Program-made: the position numbers and the translations under genes
Shown here: piece after piece, positions 17,886 through 25,916 of the stretch
How the letters are laid out: every line of letters starts with the position of its first letter
How positions within the stretch are numbered: position 1 is the first letter of the stretch
Assembly: GCA_025774545.1 (NCBI GenBank)
Contig: JALGVU010000001.1
Location: 28,573-92,572 of the forward strand
Length of the DNA: 64,000 nucleotides
DNA from: a bacterium
Lineage (GTDB): Bacteria > Joyebacterota > Joyebacteria > Joyebacterales > Joyebacteraceae
Direction: 5' to 3'
The notes under the pieces: generated by a model
What the model was told of the DNA's origin: nothing
Seen by the model: only the letters and a program-made list of their open reading frames with translations
The model's database searches: none

Positions 17886-19484
17886 ATGGAATCGGCCGAC
17901 TTCGTGGTGGTGGGCAGCGGGATCGCGGGTCTCACGTTCGCGCTCACGGTGGCGGGACGGGGGCGCGTGATCGTCATCACGAAGAAGGACGACGCGGAGT
18001 CCGCGACGAACATGGCCCAGGGCGGCATCGCAGCCGTGACGCGGGACCCCGACTCGTTCGAGAAGCACATCGAGGACACCCTCACGGCGGGCGTCGGGCT
18101 CTGCAATCGAGAGGCGGTCGGGATCGCCGTCCGGAGCGGACCTGCGGCCGTCGAGCGTCTGATGGAGTGGGGCACGCGATTCTCGAGAACCGAGAGTTCC
18201 GACGGATCGATCGCGTTCGACCTCGGGCGCGAGGGCGGCCACTCGGACCGGCGGATCGTGCACGCCTCCGACATGACCGGAAGGGAGATCGAGACCGCCC
18301 TCCTCAGAGCGCTGGGGCGCCACCCGAACGTCGAGATGTGGGAGGACCACGTCGCGATCGACCTGGTCGTTCGAGACACGCCTGCCGGCCGGGCGTGCGG
18401 TGGGGTCCGCGTTCTCGATGTCGAGCGGGATCGCGTCGTGACCGTGGCCGCGTCCGTGACGGTCCTGGCGACCGGAGGCGCCGGGAAGGTCTACCTCTAC
18501 ACGACGAACCCCGACATCGCGAGCGGCGACGGGGTCGCCATGGCCTACCGGGCGGGCGTGCCGATCAGGAACATGGAGTTCATCCAGTTCCATCCGACGT
18601 GCCTCTACCATCCGACCGTCAAGTCGTTCCTCATCTCAGAGGCCGTGCGCGGCGAGGGCGCCGTGCTCCGGGGCCTGTCGGGCCGGCGCATCATGGAGGG
18701 CCAGCACCCGCGCGAGGACCTGGCGCCTCGCGACGTCGTCGCCCGGGCGATCGACAAGACGATGAAGACGACGGGCGACAAGCACGCGTACCTCGACATC
18801 TCGCACGTCGACGCCGCCCGCGTCCGCGAGCGGTTCCCGAACATCGTAACGCGCCTCGCCGAGCTCGGCATCGACATGACGTCGGAGCCGATTCCGGTCG
18901 TGCCGGCCGCGCACTACCTGTGCGGCGGCATCGAGGTCGACCTCGAGTGCAGGACGACCCTGCCGGGGCTCTACGCGGTGGGGGAGACGGCCCACACGGG
19001 CATGCACGGGGCCAACCGCCTCGCGTCGAACTCGCTCCTCGAGGCCGTGGTCTTCAGCCGGCGGGCGGCCGGTTCGGCGATCGCGGAGCTCGACGATCGC
19101 CGTGCCGCGCTCGGGCCGGCGCCCGATCCCGCGTGGCACGGGAACGAGGCGGGTTCCGTTCCCGAGGGCGTGCTGCTCGACTACAACTGGGACGTTGTCC
19201 GCAGGCTGATGTGGGACTATGTTGGTATCGTGAGAAACGAACGGAGGCTCGTGCTCGCTGGGGCCCGCATGGCCGGGATAGCTGAGGAGGTCGACGACCT
19301 GTTCTCGCGCTACCCCGTGAGCGGCGACCTCCTCGAGCTCAGGAACATCTGCCTCGTCGGGGATCTCATCATTAGAAGCGCCCTCGAGAGGAAGGAGTCG
19401 AGAGGGCTCCACTTCATGGAGGACTTCCCCGAGCGCGACGATGAGCATTTCCTCAGCGACACCGTCGTCGTCAGGAACGCGTGA
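17886..19484 (+). CDS. nadB: L-aspartate oxidase NadB
   Basis: FAD-binding GSGIAGL N-terminus. Succinate-dehydrogenase/fumarate-reductase flavoprotein family, 532 aa. Confidence 0.88.
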   Translation: MESADFVVVGSGIAGLTFALTVAGRGRVIVITKKDDAESATNMAQGGIAAVTRDPDSFEKHIEDTLTAGVGLCNREAVGIAVRSGPAAVERLMEWGTRFSRTESSDGSIAFDLGREGGHSDRRIVHASDMTGREIETALLRALGRHPNVEMWEDHVAIDLVVRDTPAGRACGGVRVLDVERDRVVTVAASVTVLATGGAGKVYLYTTNPDIASGDGVAMAYRAGVPIRNMEFIQFHPTCLYHPTVKSFLISEAVRGEGAVLRGLSGRRIMEGQHPREDLAPRDVVARAIDKTMKTTGDKHAYLDISHVDAARVRERFPNIVTRLAELGIDMTSEPIPVVPAAHYLCGGIEVDLECRTTLPGLYAVGETAHTGMHGANRLASNSLLEAVVFSRRAAGSAIAELDDRRAALGPAPDPAWHGNEAGSVPEGVLLDYNWDVVRRLMWDYVGIVRNERRLVLAGARMAGIAEEVDDLFSRYPVSGDLLELRNICLVGDLIIRSALERKESRGLHFMEDFPERDDEHFLSDTVVVRNA

Positions 19485-19486
19485 CC

Positions 19487-21073
19487 ATGAAATCGATCAG
19501 GACATTCAGTCTCTTGGCCCTCGTGGCTCTCCTGGCGAGCCTCGTGCCGGGGTGTGCCGAAGGAGGCGATGAGCAGGTGATGAACGATGCGAAAGGTACG
19601 GGCGACGTTCGCCGCCCGGTCGTGGCCGGGGCCTTCTATCCCGGCGATGCCGCCACGCTCGCCCGCGACGTCGACGGGTATTTGGCTTCCGCCGGCGCCT
19701 CCACGGTCACGGGCGACGTCGTGGCGATCGTCTCGCCCCACGCGGGGTACGTCTACTCGGGACCCGTGGCGGCACACTCGTACGCCGCGCTCGCGGGCCG
19801 GCGATTCGACACGGTGATCGTCGTCGCGCCGTCCCACCGCGTGGCCTTCCCCGGAGCCTCGGTCTTCGGGGGCCACGGGTACGCCACGCCGCTCGGCGTC
19901 GTTCCGGTCGACCGCGAGCTCGCGGACGCGATCCGGGACGCCGACGGTTCCTTCGTCTACGAGCCGCGGGCGCACGAGGCCGAGCACTCGCTCGAGGTGC
20001 AGGTGCCGTTTCTCCAGCGGACCCTCGGGGAGTTCGAGATCGTGCCGATCGTCATGGGCGATCAGGCGGCCCCCGCGGCCCGCGCCCTCGCGGCCGGGAT
20101 CGCGGCGGCCGTCGAGCGGGCGGGCGCCACGAAGCGCGTGCTCCTCGTGGCGAGCACCGACCTTTCACACTTCCACGACGACGAGACGGCGCGCCGCATC
20201 GACGCGCGCGTGCTCGAGGCGGTCGGCGACTTGGATCCCGAGGGGCTTCTGCGCTCGCTCGCGAGCGGCGAGTGCGAGGCGTGCGGCGGGGGGCCGACCG
20301 CGACCGTGATGATGGCGGCGCGCGAGCTCGGCGCGGACTCGGCGGAGGTCGTGAGCTACGGCACGTCGGGCGACACGTCCGGCGACAAGAGCCGAGTGGT
20401 CGGGTACATGGCCGCCGTGCTGACGCGGACGACGCTGGATGGAGACGCGGGCGGAGGCGCCCGCGCGGAGGGAGAGCGCGGCGCTGGCACCGAGGCTCCT
20501 GTGCCGTACGAGGGGCTCTCGCACGACGAGAAAGTGGAGCTCCTCAGGCTCGCGCGACTGGCGATCGAGCGGGCCATCGCCGGGGAACCGCCCCCGACGT
20601 CCGAGCTTCCGTCGTCGGCGCTCGACACGCCGTGCGGGGCCTTCGTGACGCTCAACAAGCAGGGGCGGCTCCGCGGCTGCATCGGACACATCGTGGGTGA
20701 CGTCCCGCTCCGCCGAACCGTCGGGGGGATGGCGGTCGAGGCCGCGCTGCGCGACCCGCGTTTCCCGCCGGTCTCGGCCGAGGAGATCGGGGAGATCGAA
20801 CTCGAGATCTCCGTCCTCTCGCCGCTCATCGAGGTGACCGACGTCTCCGAGATCGAGGTGGGGCGCGACGGCCTGATCATCCAGGAGGGCGCGAGGCGCG
20901 GCCTGCTCCTACCCCAGGTCGCGACCGAATACGGTTGGGATCGTGAGTCCTTTCTCGACCACACGTGCAGGAAGGCCGGTCTCCCCGCTGGGCGCTGGCG
21001 GGAGCCGGGAGTTCACATCGCCAGGTTCACGGCGGAGGTGTTCGGCGAGCGCGACGTCGGGGTCGGAGGCTAG
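19487..21073 (+). CDS. AmmeMemoRadiSam system fusion: Memo-like protein B (N-terminal) plus AMMECR1-like protein A (C-terminal), with lipoprotein-type signal peptide
   Basis: N-terminus MKSIRTFSLLALVALLASLVPGC. Memo domain (VVAGAFYPGD ... SHFH). G/A/E-rich linker. AMMECR1 domain (CGAFVTLNKQGRLRGCIG). Confidence 0.75.
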   Translation: MKSIRTFSLLALVALLASLVPGCAEGGDEQVMNDAKGTGDVRRPVVAGAFYPGDAATLARDVDGYLASAGASTVTGDVVAIVSPHAGYVYSGPVAAHSYAALAGRRFDTVIVVAPSHRVAFPGASVFGGHGYATPLGVVPVDRELADAIRDADGSFVYEPRAHEAEHSLEVQVPFLQRTLGEFEIVPIVMGDQAAPAARALAAGIAAAVERAGATKRVLLVASTDLSHFHDDETARRIDARVLEAVGDLDPEGLLRSLASGECEACGGGPTATVMMAARELGADSAEVVSYGTSGDTSGDKSRVVGYMAAVLTRTTLDGDAGGGARAEGERGAGTEAPVPYEGLSHDEKVELLRLARLAIERAIAGEPPPTSELPSSALDTPCGAFVTLNKQGRLRGCIGHIVGDVPLRRTVGGMAVEAALRDPRFPPVSAEEIGEIELEISVLSPLIEVTDVSEIEVGRDGLIIQEGARRGLLLPQVATEYGWDRESFLDHTCRKAGLPAGRWREPGVHIARFTAEVFGERDVGVGG

Positions 21074-21161
21074 CGCGTCGCGGTGCCGCGGCGATGCCGC
21101 CGACGGGACCGCCCGCGACTCGGCGCCGCGGAGCCAGAGCGGGCATCGGGGAGCAGCGACG

Positions 21162-22295
21162 ATGGGGTACGGAAGGAGCAGGGCGGCAGGCGTGGTTCTC
21201 GTGGCCGCGGGGCTCGTTGTCCTCGCGCTCGGGATCGTCGGGATCGCCTCGGGTCGAAGGGCCGGAGGGGGATTCGGCTTCGTCGAGCCGAGGGAGGCGA
21301 GCCACTGGGAGAGTCTCGAGGACGACTGGGTGAAGTGCGGGCTCTGTCCGAGGCGCTGCGTGGTGCCCCCCGGCGGCCGGGGGTACTGCGAGGTTCGCGA
21401 GAATCGGGACGGGATCTACTACACCCTGACCTACGGGAACCCGTGCGCGGTTCACGTCGACCCGATCGAGAAGAAGCCGTTCTACCACTTCCTGCCGACG
21501 ACACGCTCGTTCTCGATCGCGACGGCCGGCTGCAATCTCGAGTGCAAGTTCTGCCAGAACTGGCAGATCTCGCAGGCGAGGCCCGAGGAGCTCTCCAACG
21601 AGTACCTTCCGCCTTCGGCGGTCGTCGAGTCGGCGATCGCGAACGGTTGCGCGACGATCGCGTACACCTACTCGGAACCGACCATCTTCTTCGAGTACAT
21701 GCTCGACACGGCGAAGCTCGCCCACGAGCGTGGCGTCCGGAACGTCTACCACTCGAACGGGTTCATCAACCCTGGACCGCTTCGCGAGCTGACGCAGTAC
21801 CTCGACGCGGCCAACATCGATCTGAAGGGTTTCAGCGAGGAGTACTACGCCGACATGAGCGACGCGTCGCTCGCGCCCGTGCTTCGCTCGCTCAAGATCC
21901 TGGTCGAAGACGGTGTGCACCTCGAGCTCACGACGCTCCTCGTGCCGGGCGGGAACGACGATCCCGAGATGATCGCCGAGATGTGCGAGTGGATTCGCGA
22001 GAACCTCGGGGCCTCGGTGCCGCTCCACTTCTCCCGTTTTCACCCGCAGTATCGTCTCAGAGACCTACCCCCCACGCCGGTCGAGCGTCTGGAGACGGCC
22101 CGGCGGATCGCGCTCGACGCCGGTCTCAAGCACGTCTACATCGGGAACGTCCCGGGGCACGACGCCAACAGCACGTACTGCCCGCAGTGCGGCCGGAGGC
22201 TGATCTACCGGATCGGCTACGACGTCGACCCCTCAGGGCTCGATTCGGGCGCGTGCCCGGTCTGCGGCACGGCGATCGAGGGCGTCTGGGAGTAA
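21162..22295 (+). CDS. AmmeMemoRadiSam system radical SAM enzyme, with N-terminal membrane anchor
   Basis: N-terminal hydrophobic helix AAGVVLVAAGLVVLALGIVGIA. CxxC pair then radical SAM CNLECKFC motif. C-terminal CPQCG...CPVCG zinc-ribbon-like pairs. Immediately downstream of the Memo-AMMECR1 gene. Confidence 0.75.
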   Translation: MGYGRSRAAGVVLVAAGLVVLALGIVGIASGRRAGGGFGFVEPREASHWESLEDDWVKCGLCPRRCVVPPGGRGYCEVRENRDGIYYTLTYGNPCAVHVDPIEKKPFYHFLPTTRSFSIATAGCNLECKFCQNWQISQARPEELSNEYLPPSAVVESAIANGCATIAYTYSEPTIFFEYMLDTAKLAHERGVRNVYHSNGFINPGPLRELTQYLDAANIDLKGFSEEYYADMSDASLAPVLRSLKILVEDGVHLELTTLLVPGGNDDPEMIAEMCEWIRENLGASVPLHFSRFHPQYRLRDLPPTPVERLETARRIALDAGLKHVYIGNVPGHDANSTYCPQCGRRLIYRIGYDVDPSGLDSGACPVCGTAIEGVWE

Positions 22296-22306
22296 CAATG
22301 ACGGTG

Positions 22307-22336
22307 TTGACAGCCGGCGCCCCCATCGTCTAGAGT
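22307..22336 (+). promoter_or_regulatory. Putative sigma70-like promoter (TTGACA-18-TAGAGT) for the beta-helix gene
   Basis: Consensus -35 and a 4/6 -10 in the 115-nt gap. SD GAAGGAGG follows. Confidence 0.35.
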
Positions 22337-22409: not shown

Positions 22410-23423
22410 ATGCGTCTTTCTTTGGTGGCCATCTTGATCGGCCTCACGGCGGCCACCGCAGGTGCGGAGGTCATCAACGTCCCCGATCCCGACGAGAGCA
22501 TCCGGAGCATTCAGCAGGGACTGCTCCGGGCCGACCCGGGTGACACCGTGCTCCTGTCGTCGGGCGTCTTCGACAGCGTCAGCACCTTCCTGACGCCCTG
22601 GGGCCTGAAGACGGCGATCGCGAGCATTCCGGACGGCGTTATCCTCATGGGCGTCGACCGCAGGGACTCGAGGATCGACTACACGAACGCCGAGTACGGC
22701 ATTCTCTGCATGGACGTCGGGGAGGAGACCCGGATCGAGAACCTCAGCATCGGGGGCGGCATCGGCCGGGACCAGGGGCGTGCGGACGACGCCGACGTGA
22801 GGACCCTCGTGGCTGGCATCACCTGCCTGAAGAACGCGAGTCCCACGATCAGGGATCTCTCGATCCAGGAAGGCGCGACCGGGATCATCGTCAATGAGAA
22901 CTCGGCGCCGATCATCGAGACCTCCGTCATCGCGCGAGGCAGCCACCACGGCGTGTACGTCTACATGAACGGCGCCACGCCGGCCGTCATCGATCACGTT
23001 TCGCTCGTGCAGAATTTCGACATGGGCGTCTACGTCTTCAACGGCTCGGTGAGCGTGAGGAACTGCTCGATCACTCACAACGGCAAGCACGGCGTGAAGT
23101 CGTACCTCTCGGACCCGATCCTCGAGTACAACAACGTCTACTGGAACGATCGAATCGACCCCGACTCGCAGACCGGCCCTCTCAACTACGGCGGGCTCGA
23201 CGATCTCACCGGCGTCGACGGGAACATCTCCGTTGAGCCGTTCTACTGCGACTTCTTCGGATCCGCAGGCTACGACTACCACGTCTGCTTCGAGGAGTCG
23301 CCGAACTTGGAGGCCGACGAGTTCGGCGCGTTCGTGGGCGTCTACGGAGGTGGCTGCGACAACTGCGTGTCGTCGCCCGTCGAGCCGACGACGTGGGGAG
23401 CGATCAAGGCCCTCTACCGCTAG
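22410..23423 (+). CDS. Secreted right-handed parallel beta-helix repeat protein (pectin-lyase-fold, NosD-like), Cys-rich C-terminus
   Basis: Signal peptide MRLSLVAILIGLTAATAGA. Repeated N/G/V-rich beta-helix turns. Five Cys in the last 60 aa. Confidence 0.6.
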   Translation: MRLSLVAILIGLTAATAGAEVINVPDPDESIRSIQQGLLRADPGDTVLLSSGVFDSVSTFLTPWGLKTAIASIPDGVILMGVDRRDSRIDYTNAEYGILCMDVGEETRIENLSIGGGIGRDQGRADDADVRTLVAGITCLKNASPTIRDLSIQEGATGIIVNENSAPIIETSVIARGSHHGVYVYMNGATPAVIDHVSLVQNFDMGVYVFNGSVSVRNCSITHNGKHGVKSYLSDPILEYNNVYWNDRIDPDSQTGPLNYGGLDDLTGVDGNISVEPFYCDFFGSAGYDYHVCFEESPNLEADEFGAFVGVYGGGCDNCVSSPVEPTTWGAIKALYR

Positions 23424-23546: not shown

Positions 23547-25916
23547 CTACGCGGCGCGCCCGAGCCGCACGATCGGGACGACGAGCCCGACGAGCACGGC
23601 GGCGTTCAGGAGGGAGAGGGCGCCCATCGTCCCGGGGATTCCCATGACGGGAAGGAGGATGACGCCCGCGAAGACCGCGCCGACGGCGGATCCGGCGAGA
23701 TCGGTGCCGTAGAGCCTGCCGCCCGCCGTCGACGGGACCGCCGCGTCGGTCGCGAAGAGGCGCGCGGCGAGCGGGAACTGCGCGCCCGCGAGCACGGCAG
23801 ACCCGACGACGATCAGCGGGAAGAGCCCCGCCCAGACGGCCAACGCGTCGGGGGGGAGCCCCGCGAGGCCTGTGAGCGTCGCGGCGAGCCCGAGCGGAAC
23901 GCAGGCGATCGCGAGCTCGAGGAGCGCGAACGCACGCGGTCCGGCGCCCCTCGCCGCCGCGCGCGCCCCGAGCCAGCCGCCCGCCGCGAGTCCGGCCATG
24001 AAGGCCGCGACGATGAGCGCAAGGCGATGGTACACGTAGCCGTAGAGGCTCTGGAAGGCGATGAGCGCCGCGATCTCGAGGCTGATCTCGGTCAGTCCGA
24101 CGACGAAGACGGCCACCAGGACATTGCGTCTGAGCGTCGAGCGGGCGGCCTTCCGGACGAGCGCCGGGGCACAGAGCGCGACCGCGAGCACCACGGCCAC
24201 GATGAGCGCGTTCCCGAGCGTGAGGAACCGCGGCGCCGCGCGCACGAAGGCAGGCGAGCGCGAGAACTGGCGGTTCCACAGCACGGTCGAAAGGTAGACT
24301 CCGGCAGGTGACAGGTCGGTGTTGAGCGGCGAGTCCACGTCCTCGATCGCCCGGTCGAGAGCGGCGACCCTCTCGCTCGAGAACCGGTCCGCGAGGTAGT
24401 AGCCCCGCGTGTGGATGACGTCGAGCCGTCTCTCGGCCACCCTCTCGATGAGGAGATCGACGTCGCGCGCGGACGTGGCGCCGGGCCCGGCGATGAAGTG
24501 GCACGGGTCGCCGGGGAAGATCGCGACCTCCTCGAACGCGGAGGCGAGCGTCGTCCGGACGCACGCGAGGAAGCGGGCGAGGTCGGGACCGATGTAGTTC
24601 TCGGCCGACGAGACCGCCAGACCCAGGAGGCCTCCGGACGCGAGAACTCGCTCGGCCTCGCTGAAGAAGCCGGCCGTGTAGAACCGGTTGAGCTGGGCGG
24701 TGGTGGGATCCGGGACGTTGACGATCACGACGTCGTACGTTGCGTGGGCACGCTTGACGAAGAAGCGGGCGTCGACGTAGTGCACCGTGACGCGCCCGTC
24801 GGCGTGCCCGCCGACCATCGCGTCACCGAACTCGCTCGCCGCCGTGCGAACGAGTGCGGGATCGAGCTCCACGAAATCGACCGACGTCACGGTCGGGTGC
24901 TTGAGGATCTCGTCGATCGTCCCGGCGAGCCCGCCTCCCAGGAGCAGCACGCGCGAGGGGCCGGGGTGGGAGAGGAGCGGGAGGTGGACGGCCTCCTCGG
25001 CCGCCAGACGGTCGGGCGCCGACGCGACGAGGACGCCGCTCTCGTAGATGCTCTTCTGGGTGCCGGCCTGTGTCGCGACGATCCGCCCGTAGACGGAGTT
25101 GGTCTGGGATCGGAACCCGAGGTCCTTCCACGCGATCCCGACGGTCGCGTCGTCGACCGCGGGGGAGAGGGCAAGGAGCACGATCGAGCCTAGGGCGACC
25201 GCCACCGCGGCGGCTCGGACGCGCGCCGGGGACGTGCCGGGGACGGCCGAAGGGGGATGAGCGATCGCGAACGCCGCGGCGGCCGTGAGGAAGGCCATGA
25301 ACGAGGCGATCCTCACGGGATCCCAGTGAGGGAGGAGGACGAAGCTGACGAGGATTCCCCCGACCGCCGCGCCCGCGGCCTCGAGGATGTAGACCGTCCC
25401 GATCGCCGACGGTGCCCGTTCTCGGGACAGCGCCGCGACGCCCACGGCGAACAGGAAGCCGGCGACGAGGGTGAAGGGTGCCAAGGCGATGATCGAGGCG
25501 AGGAAGAGCGTCCCGGGGCCGGCCAGCTCTCCGGCGCCGACGCCCACGGTGTCTCGCGCGAGGCGGGCGACCACGAGGGCGACGGGCGCCAGTACCGAGA
25601 GCGCGAGAAGGCCGCGGGCGAAGGCGAGTCGAGGTGAGCCGATCCGACCCGCGAGTGGCCCGACCAGCGCGCTCCCGGCGCCCGTGAAGGTCAGCCAGAC
25701 GGCGAGCGCGAGCCCGAACGACAGCTCGTTGCCCCTCCAGGCGACCATCAGCTCCCTGAGGAGCAGGACCTGAACGGTGAGGGATGTCGTGCCGGCGAGC
25801 GCGAAGGCGGTCCGGAGGGCGGCACGCGGCGCGCCCGCGGGCGTCCCTATGTCGGTTCTCGGTGTGGGCATCCTCACCGTCAGTCTAGCAGACGCCGCGC
25901 GGCGCGGTCGAACCAT
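23547..25916 (-). CDS. Fused MFS-like membrane domain / spermidine synthase (polyamine aminopropyltransferase family)
   Basis: 789 aa with multiple TM helices at both ends flanking a central SpeE-like domain (VLLLGGGLAGT ... VDLDP ... VIVNVPDP). The only convincing minus-strand gene. Start codon uncertain. Confidence 0.7.
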   Translation of the reverse strand: MVRPRRAASARLTVRMPTPRTDIGTPAGAPRAALRTAFALAGTTSLTVQVLLLRELMVAWRGNELSFGLALAVWLTFTGAGSALVGPLAGRIGSPRLAFARGLLALSVLAPVALVVARLARDTVGVGAGELAGPGTLFLASIIALAPFTLVAGFLFAVGVAALSRERAPSAIGTVYILEAAGAAVGGILVSFVLLPHWDPVRIASFMAFLTAAAAFAIAHPPSAVPGTSPARVRAAAVAVALGSIVLLALSPAVDDATVGIAWKDLGFRSQTNSVYGRIVATQAGTQKSIYESGVLVASAPDRLAAEEAVHLPLLSHPGPSRVLLLGGGLAGTIDEILKHPTVTSVDFVELDPALVRTAASEFGDAMVGGHADGRVTVHYVDARFFVKRAHATYDVVIVNVPDPTTAQLNRFYTAGFFSEAERVLASGGLLGLAVSSAENYIGPDLARFLACVRTTLASAFEEVAIFPGDPCHFIAGPGATSARDVDLLIERVAERRLDVIHTRGYYLADRFSSERVAALDRAIEDVDSPLNTDLSPAGVYLSTVLWNRQFSRSPAFVRAAPRFLTLGNALIVAVVLAVALCAPALVRKAARSTLRRNVLVAVFVVGLTEISLEIAALIAFQSLYGYVYHRLALIVAAFMAGLAAGGWLGARAAARGAGPRAFALLELAIACVPLGLAATLTGLAGLPPDALAVWAGLFPLIVVGSAVLAGAQFPLAARLFATDAAVPSTAGGRLYGTDLAGSAVGAVFAGVILLPVMGIPGTMGALSLLNAAVLVGLVVPIVRLGRAA

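Follow-up and report, generated by a model that had tools for sequence, protein, structure and literature searches.

We have analysed a 64,000-nt stretch (the window) of contig JALGVU010000001.1 in assembly GCA_025774545.1, from a bacterium of the Joyebacterota lineage, which carries a complete AmmeMemoRadiSam triad: a Memo-like protein B, an AMMECR1-like protein A and the dedicated radical S-adenosylmethionine (SAM, AdoMet) enzyme, called rSAM hereafter. Proteins B and A are encoded in one open reading frame (ORF), and the rSAM gene lies on the same strand, its ATG at 21162 being 88 nt past the stop codon of the fusion gene and preceded, 8 nt upstream, by GGGGAG (Table 1). The first-pass annotation of this DNA had proposed a complete and adjacent triad and a search with the three AmmeMemoRadiSam models, and the triad is now confirmed because all three NCBIfam models scored far over their cutoffs: 291 bits for TIGR04336 (AmmeMemoSam_B; cutoff 26; residues 42–311), 178.7 bits for TIGR04335 (AmmeMemoSam_A; cutoff 99; residues 352–519) and 385.9 bits for TIGR04337 (AmmeMemoSam_rS; cutoff 220), the last matching from ORF residue 120 on. 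Public annotation has exactly the starts assigned here for both proteins. The components and the three-gene system are already known, with their function uncharacterised, and AMMECR1 was still termed uncharacterised in papers of 2019 and 2026.

Table 1. Features of the AmmeMemoRadiSam locus and of its neighbours, with positions in the window (CDS, coding sequence; HMM, hidden Markov model; SD, Shine-Dalgarno sequence; Tat, twin-arginine translocation; TM, transmembrane segment).
Feature	Position	Strand	Size or residues	Basis or remark
Memo-AMMECR1 (protein B - protein A) fusion CDS	19487..21073	+	528 aa	NCBIfam and Pfam; same start in public annotation
Predicted signal peptide of the fusion, MKSIRTFSLLALVALLASLVPG-C23	19487..19555	+		Positive n-region, 14-residue h-region, lipobox-like LVPGC
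Internal SD GAAGGAGG (19560-19567) with in-frame GTG 19577 and ATG 19580	19560..19582	+		Sequence; conservation
Memo (protein B) domain	19610..20419	+	Residues 42-311	Profile matches; invariant residues
G/A/E-rich interdomain linker	20420..20539	+	Residues 312-351	Translation; gap between HMM matches
AMMECR1 (protein A) domain	20540..21043	+	Residues 352-519	Profile matches
AmmeMemoRadiSam radical SAM (rSAM) CDS	21162..22295	+	377 aa	TIGR04337; start-codon survey; same start in public annotation
Hydrophobic segment of rSAM, AAGVVLVAAGLVVLALGIVGIASG	21183..21254	+	Residues 8-31	After MGYGRSR n-region; read as signal-anchor or degenerate Tat-type signal
Catalytic core of rSAM	21300..22292	+	Residues 47-377	Profile match; invariant columns
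Secreted right-handed beta-helix protein	22410..23423	+		Pfam Beta_helix; signal peptide; conserved C-terminal tag
Polytopic membrane protein (about 7 TM, spermidine-synthase-like domain, about 7 TM)	23547..25916	-	789 aa	Pfam Spermine_synth 82.7 bits

The fusion protein (B-A) begins at ATG 19487, 2 nt past the stop codon of nadB (19482–19484), and an in-frame GTG is present at 19481. Pfam also recognises its two domains (Memo, 204 bits; AMMECR1, 186 bits), which are joined, as the first reading of the sequence had described, in B-A order through the G/A/E-rich linker. The invariant His, Asp and Cys residues of the Memo domain are kept (H85, H117, H163, H167, D225, H228, C263 and C266) and this domain matches the MEMO1 structures 3bcz and 7kq8, while the AMMECR1 domain keeps the invariant LRGCIG motif (C398) and matches the PH0010 structure 1vaj (E=7e-35). 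The fusion as such proved to be ordinary: over 7,900 homologues turned up, and in JGI annotation they already bear the name 'protein B/protein A'.

The N-terminus of B-A was investigated by comparison with its homologues. It has K2 and R5, an h-region of 14 residues and the sequence L-V-P-G-C23, in which Pro at -2 departs from the lipobox consensus [LVI][ASTVI][GAS]C. A signal was called in 63 of the 76 close B-A homologues, and a lipobox-like xxGC Cys was present in 60 of these 63; the majority of the 60 have A[SAT]GC, and the xPGC form of the window recurs in nine. One homologue annotated with a short N-terminus (P0003) carries a signal and a lipobox in frame upstream of its called start, and Acidobacterial orthologues have signal peptidase I (SPI)-type signals (…HVRA/A…, the slash marking the cleavage site) with zero internal start codons. 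On the view that such a conserved pattern reflects translated sequence, we judge that the signal is a real coding feature and not a start-codon artefact. The signal may be of the proposed Sec/lipoprotein type, with a conserved Cys and an off-consensus lipobox. Signal-bearing B-A proteins are not specific to one phylum, a point that the first-pass annotation had raised; they occur in Eisenbacteria, Acidobacteriota, Desulfobacterota, Zixibacteria, Marinimicrobia, Nitrospirota, Omnitrophota and others.

In rSAM, the SAM-cluster motif is intact (C124-x3-C128-x2-C131, i.e. CX3CX2C) and is accompanied by an N-terminal 4-Cys motif (C59-x2-C62-x3-C66...C76) and C-terminal CxxC pairs (C340, C343, C365 and C368). 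All three Cys motifs are invariant and identical to those of the cytosolic members of the family; the retention of these iron–sulphur (Fe-S) or metal sites fits Tat export of a folded cofactor protein, without being diagnostic of it. Before the conserved domain, canonical start codons are limited to ATG 21162 and a pair of GTGs within the hydrophobic helix, and the next one, GTG 21330, falls inside a conserved N-terminal strand at which no homologue begins. An extension of about 45 residues, in which a positive n-region precedes some 24 uncharged core residues, is kept in all close homologues, so that the hydrophobic helix noticed in the first-pass annotation is borne out, with no usable start codon downstream of it.

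We next consider the side of the membrane on which the catalytic domain may lie. The 24 uncharged residues of the window's segment lie where orthologues have their Tat signals, and in 65 of the 77 members of the rSAM clade there is more positive charge on the N flank than on the C flank, which predicts an N-in/C-out topology. Relatives at 65–72% identity (P0155 and P0195–P0199) have short cleavable signals of AxA type, e.g. …PAPVRA/QAP and …VAGAA/QEQ. Because of this charge bias and these cleavable signals, we favour N-in/C-out with the catalytic domain outside, in agreement with the orthologues that bear Tat signals. The N-terminus of the window's own rSAM gave no match at E<=10 to the Tat HMMs PF10518 and TIGR01409, and its n-region reads R-S-R and not RR; since, in addition, RR is found in only 24 of 76 clade members, this rSAM has not been filed as a Tat substrate. 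The term 'membrane-anchored', used earlier for this protein, is correct as to the hydrophobic N-terminus and understates the case in another respect, for orthologues have bona fide Tat signals and the charge bias predicts C-out.

Relatives in other phyla also bear on the location of the enzyme. We fetched 160 loci from genomes and metagenomes, 51 of which had complete B-A and rSAM genes adjacent to each other. B-A was signal-like in 48 of these 51 paired loci, and the N-termini of the rSAM partners were distributed as follows: strict RR.F[LIVF] in 33; loose RR with a hydrophobic stretch in 9, including the window; a hydrophobic stretch only in 3; and none in 6. Typical examples are LDRRSFLKCALASGAALG in Acidobacteriota, SRRDFLKQCG and SRRHFLK…ARA/Q in Desulfobacterota, and SRRDFIKLIGG in Marinimicrobia. 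Orthologues from loci L027, L031, L005 and L030 pass the Tat models themselves, with 25.3 and 24.3 bits for Pfam TAT_signal PF10518 (gathering cutoff 22.7) and 17.0–18.5 bits for TIGR01409 (cutoff 16.7), and the Tat-bearing orthologues are bona fide members of TIGR04337 (368–386 bits). When 1.84 billion cluster representatives were searched exhaustively and the 150 best (50%-identity clusters) were classed, 87 had no extension, 22 were Tat-like, 7 were hydrophobic without RR, 13 had long N-terminal fusions, 9 had other extensions and 12 were unclear. As to the six paired loci whose rSAM has no extension (L040, L069, L074, L077, L109 and L116), the compartments may be split in these lineages, or there may be assembly or start-site problems.

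The long fusions, in which TIGR04337 domains (362–416 bits) stand behind assorted modules, are another source of information on topology. The rSAM domain follows FMN_bind domains with the ApbE flavinylation motif D..SGAT in P0246 and P0263, a PorZ/Reg_prop-type beta-propeller in P0243 and a CBM_11 domain in P0265. These four proteins have one N-terminal TM or signal and no more TM before the rSAM domain, and because no TM lies in between, the rSAM domain shares the compartment of these extracytosolic-type domains. In P0244, P0248 and P0249 the rSAM domain stands behind NosR/NapH-like FMN_bind plus Fer4_5 modules; these were dropped as topology evidence, their crude TM count being ambiguous. 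DsbD_2 is fused to rSAM in P0247, P0249 and P0255. The FMN_bind and NapH-like modules serve in electron transfer outside the cytosol (Meheust et al., 2021, PMC8238504), and that paper makes no mention of radical SAM, Memo or AMMECR1. Two further kinds of architecture were observed in the survey: in P0259, P0262 and P0293 an AMMECR1-like C-terminus (…HCARDKAGIG…) runs straight into rSAM in a single polypeptide, suggesting A-rSAM or triple B-A-rSAM fusions, and twelve proteins of about 1,000–1,150 aa (P0279, P0295, P0297, P0318, P0325, P0327, P0335, P0341, P0342, P0345, P0347 and P0348) have an N-terminal AmmeMemoRadiSam-type rSAM followed by about 700 further residues.

Recurrent neighbours were searched for by all-against-all clustering of the ORFs in the loci, and one of them is the polytopic membrane protein encoded on the minus strand of the window. 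Proteins of this kind (SpeE-like; about 800 aa with a central Spermine_synth domain) are found in 53 loci across phyla, and the window's copy is 37% identical to an Acidobacterial one over 752 aa (E=3e-117). Their gene adjoins 39 of the 60 signal-bearing B-A loci, as against 1 of the 13 cytosolic loci. Membership of the polyamine aminopropyltransferases is not supported: the scores are below the equivalog cutoffs (PRK03612, 160.8 vs 472; speE, 82.8 vs 250), and the GGG[DE]G motif has lost its acidic residue, which selects decarboxylated SAM (GGGLAG in the window and GGGVNG in L027). In a crude positive-inside analysis of the 7TM-domain-7TM architecture, the soluble domain was predicted outside in 28 of 30 full-length homologues. 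We consider, from this linkage, that the SpeE-like protein is probably a fourth component, and it could be a partner that handles AdoMet or the substrate.

The same clustering has found other recurrent proteins among the locus neighbours: two kinds of Tat-signal DUF362 proteins, in 30 and 19 loci, and an NapH+NapG-like polyferredoxin in 12 loci. In Acidobacterial and Marinimicrobial clusters (L019, L027, L032, L044, L050, L054–L056, L064, L065, L076, L080 and L107), genes of these kinds are located upstream of rSAM; for example, the NapH+NapG-like polyferredoxin, with an internal Tat motif, is at 358–1887 of L076, and DUF362 genes are at 1198–2217 of L027 and 7419–8405 of L055. It is plausible that the NapH+NapG-like and DUF362 proteins form a periplasmic electron-supply chain for rSAM.

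Our best explanation, which we hold with modest confidence, is that the locus encodes an envelope-located (extracytoplasmic) variant of AmmeMemoRadiSam composed of a lipoprotein B-A, an rSAM anchored N-in/C-out and an outward-facing SpeE-like partner. B-A would be made with a Sec-type lipoprotein signal peptide and tethered through Cys23 on the periplasmic side, and rSAM would stay in the inner membrane through an N-terminal signal-anchor that is not cleaved; because this proposed anchor is N-in/C-out, the Fe-S/SAM domain would face the periplasm beside B-A. The two would probably act with the 14-TM SpeE-like protein, whose AdoMet-fold domain is also predicted outward. By reductive cleavage of SAM, rSAM would generate a 5'-deoxyadenosyl radical, which may act on a substrate associated with the membrane or envelope, or on B-A itself in the manner of a PFL activase, and Memo (a metal-dependent LigB-like fold) and AMMECR1 (with its conserved Cys) would finish the conversion. 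The family memberships, the adjacency of the genes, the conservation of the signals, the Tat signals and extracytosolic fusions of orthologues and the conserved partner are observations; from them we infer the topology of the window's own proteins, their joint periplasmic action, the chemistry and the substrate. The first-pass idea of an envelope-associated version is in this sense favoured by the comparative data.

Several points weigh against the envelope-located reading. Our topology calls are predictions from simple hydrophobicity and charge rules written for this analysis. The lipobox of the window's B-A has the aforementioned Pro at -2, and its rSAM has R-S-R, a very hydrophobic 24-residue core and no Tat HMM match, RR being limited to 24 of 76 in the clade. 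In the six paired loci listed above, a signal-bearing B-A is accompanied by an rSAM with no extension, and the NapH-like fusions are topologically ambiguous. Genes for NapGH-like, DUF362, FMN_bind and DsbD proteins are absent from the window (tblastn for the Acidobacterial NapGH-like and DUF362 proteins was negative), and because they are absent, no electron donor has been identified there. We know of no periplasmic SAM pool or SAM exporter, and Sec export of an Fe-S enzyme is, to our knowledge, without precedent. In addition, the conserved internal SD and GTG of the B-A gene could yield a cytosolic B-A, and this element needs to be explained here more fully.

The internal SD and start are located downstream of the signal peptide, just past the lipobox. 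In Eisenbacteria-type B-A proteins, the sequence after the lipobox Cys reads x-x-E-G-G-x-x-x-V/M/L: of 63 homologues, 51 have EGG, each of them with V (45), M (4) or L (2) three residues on. The codons for EGG are GAR-GGA-GGN, which contains GGAGG, in every Eisenbacteria-type locus despite a GC content of about 69%. When signal-bearing genes of all phyla were examined, a strong SD and start between the h-region and the Memo domain was found in 28 of 79, as against 6% of size-matched control windows, and no Acidobacterial gene is among the 28. In cytosolic B-A homologues, the same element is the ordinary SD and start of the gene. The first-pass annotation had considered a start codon truly downstream of the hydrophobic segments; for rSAM none is usable, and for B-A such a site exists, with GTG and ATG codons, yet the signal is conserved. 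Either the internal site is a relic, left when a cytosolic ancestor of the gene was extended at its 5' end, or it serves as a second initiation site from which a cytosolic, signal-less isoform is made.

If the second of these holds, the system may be divided between two compartments: the rSAM helix would tether the enzyme to the cytoplasmic face (N-out/C-in), ATG 19487 would give the lipoprotein and GTG 19577 or ATG 19580 a cytosolic B-A, and the latter would partner rSAM with cytosolic SAM and reductants, leaving a separate or downstream role to the exported form. The conservation of the strong internal SD and start and its excess over the control windows speak for such a division, as do the choice of the internal site by gene callers in 13 of 76 homologues and the lack of a Tat motif in the window's rSAM; SAM and low-potential reductants are cytosolic. 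The charge bias is nevertheless in the opposite direction in 65 of 77 rSAMs, close rSAM relatives have cleavable signals, orthologues have canonical Tat signals and extracytosolic fusions, Acidobacterial B-A genes have no internal start at all, and the internal SD may be nothing but the aforementioned relic, so that we regard this division as unlikely.

Another explanation is maturation before export, in which an rSAM on the cytoplasmic face would modify unfolded or nascent B-A, or another exported protein, ahead of its passage through Sec, as the anaerobic sulfatase-maturating radical SAM enzymes act on sulfatases in the cytoplasm, and B-A would then be alone in the periplasm. This would need no periplasmic SAM, and it agrees with the nearest characterised relatives being protein-directed activases (PFL-AE, NrdG and YjjW-type), with PFL-AE as the only PDB match; the topology evidence just cited (charge bias, cleavable signals, Tat orthologues and fusions) stands against it in the same way, a Tat signal on the modifying enzyme would be senseless, and Memo and AMMECR1 have no known modification site. 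We consider it improbable, more so than the division between compartments. That both proteins are ordinary cytosolic components whose hydrophobic N-termini correspond to 5' parts of the ORFs that are not translated is very improbable indeed, for although B-A has its internal SD and start and the rSAM gene has an SD-like GAGG ahead of GTG 21330, the frame, the hydrophobic pattern and the lipobox Cys are kept in homologues with as little as about 45% identity, initiation at 21330 would remove about 10 conserved residues matched by TIGR04337 and is used by no homologue, and GC3 (the GC content of third codon positions) is 0.87–0.89 over both full ORFs, extensions included.

The envelope-located reading can be carried further, and we do so tentatively, with somewhat less than even confidence in the whole: the entire AmmeMemoRadiSam reaction, reductive SAM cleavage included, may take place outside the cytoplasm, and this would be the first periplasmic class of radical SAM enzymes. 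As parts of this joint proposal, the enzyme would be exported folded via Tat, or through a Tat-derived signal-anchor as in the window; electrons would arrive by transmembrane relays of NapGH-like, flavinylated FMN-domain (flavin mononucleotide) or DsbD type; the dedicated 14-TM protein, with its outward AdoMet-fold domain, would deliver or handle an adenosylmethionine-type cofactor; and the substrate would be in the envelope or membrane, e.g. an isoprenoid or lipid. In a sub-variant, rSAM would be a single-shot activase exported with SAM pre-bound.

Comparison with known systems indicates which parts of the locus are standard. Like the canonical cytosolic AmmeMemoRadiSam, it has all three families over cutoff and adjacent, with the Memo His/Asp/Cys residues, the AMMECR1 LRGCIG motif and the three rSAM Cys motifs kept. 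Unlike the window's enzyme, rSAMs of the canonical type, which make up 87 of the 150 best representatives, lack a signal and begin 2–14 residues ahead of the first Cys motif; the window differs also in having targeting or anchor segments on both polypeptides, B and A fused, and a SpeE-like membrane protein linked. The glycyl-radical activating enzymes (PFL-AE, NrdG and YjjW-type) are the closest characterised relatives of rSAM, with the CX3CX2C core common to both, and they are cytosolic, whereas rSAM has extra N- and C-terminal 4-Cys motifs and no glycyl-radical enzyme as partner. Membership of rSAM in these activase families is not supported, its scores being far under the family cutoffs: 54.7 vs 131 for NrdG2, 45.7 vs 232 for PFLA and 43.2 vs 174 for PFLE_PFLC. 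Sequence search found no solved structure of an AmmeMemoRadiSam rSAM, PFL-AE being the only structure matched.

Proteins that carry Fe-S clusters across the membrane are another group for comparison. NapG and the Rieske proteins are Tat-exported Fe-S proteins, and such substrates include those with an uncleaved signal-anchor. Orthologous rSAMs resemble them in having S/T-R-R-x-F-L-K signals that pass PF10518 and TIGR01409, and the Rieske case, in which an Fe-S protein keeps its hydrophobic N-terminal anchor uncleaved, is similar to the arrangement proposed here; the window's rSAM, with R-S-R and no HMM match, is unlike them. In the searchable literature we found no radical SAM enzyme documented as a Tat substrate. 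The anaerobic sulfatase-maturating enzymes are similar in that a radical SAM enzyme is tied functionally to exported proteins, and differ in that the window's rSAM itself bears a targeting signal; they are cytosolic SPASM-domain enzymes acting before export. As to the ApbE-flavinylated extracytosolic electron-transfer systems (PMC8238504), members of the rSAM family are fused to FMN_bind, NapH-like Fer4_5 and DsbD_2, and Acidobacterial rSAM clusters include NapH/NapG-like proteins, whereas the window encodes no such module.

The region from 1050 to 38800 of the window is a long, almost entirely co-directional island for outer-membrane and lipopolysaccharide biogenesis, in which the plus-strand genes for TamB, BamA, Skp, LpxD, LpxA, LpxB, DUF374, WaaA, LpxK, NadA and NadB are followed by B-A, rSAM and the beta-helix protein, and then by the minus-strand SpeE-like gene and genes for a GT9 protein, an MsbA-like ABC transporter and further glycosyltransferases. 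Four other Eisenbacteria-type contigs keep the order lpxB…nadB-BA-rSAM-beta_helix-SpeE-like-GT9, which is not kept in other phyla. Because the order is conserved only within Eisenbacteria, a link with lipid A is not general to the system, and the functional tie has been reduced to lineage-specific synteny. The beta-helix gene, a neighbour in Eisenbacteria only, has a sigma-70-like site of its own (TTGACA-18-TAGAGT, 22307–22336) between it and the rSAM gene; it was rejected as a general member, and its membership of the system is doubtful. Its C-terminal tag, C..C.SPVE..(S/T)WGAIKALYR* (* for the stop), is kept in five Eisenbacteria-type loci and resembles a sorting signal. The first-pass annotation had taken the position between lipid A/NAD genes and a beta-helix protein as a possible hint of a cell-envelope substrate; the position is as it described, and the neighbour that is found across phyla is the SpeE-like protein.

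A signal-bearing or Tat-exported AmmeMemoRadiSam is not described in the searchable literature, in which the comparative study of Memo/AMMECR1 contexts likeliest to mention one was not covered. Burroughs and coworkers are said to have proposed, in JBC in 2019, nucleotide-base or isoprenoid modification for such contexts. The comparisons suggest that the exported or anchored form is an apparently new variant, one that would imply radical SAM chemistry outside the cytoplasm.

Since radical SAM enzymes depend on SAM, Fe-S assembly and low-potential electrons, they have been regarded as strictly cytoplasmic, and a large branch of one family, spread over many phyla, with Tat signals, signal-anchors and extracytosolic redox fusions challenges this view. 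Periplasmic radical SAM chemistry would raise the questions of how SAM and electrons reach the periplasm and how export of an Fe-S enzyme that lacks RR is achieved. Conservation of Memo and AMMECR1 extends from archaea to humans, in whom MEMO1 is connected with cancer cell motility and AMMECR1 with an X-linked syndrome; a version confined to the envelope, with partners such as the SpeE-like protein, NapGH-like proteins, DUF362 and FMN domains, would greatly narrow the search for their substrate and make it experimentally approachable.

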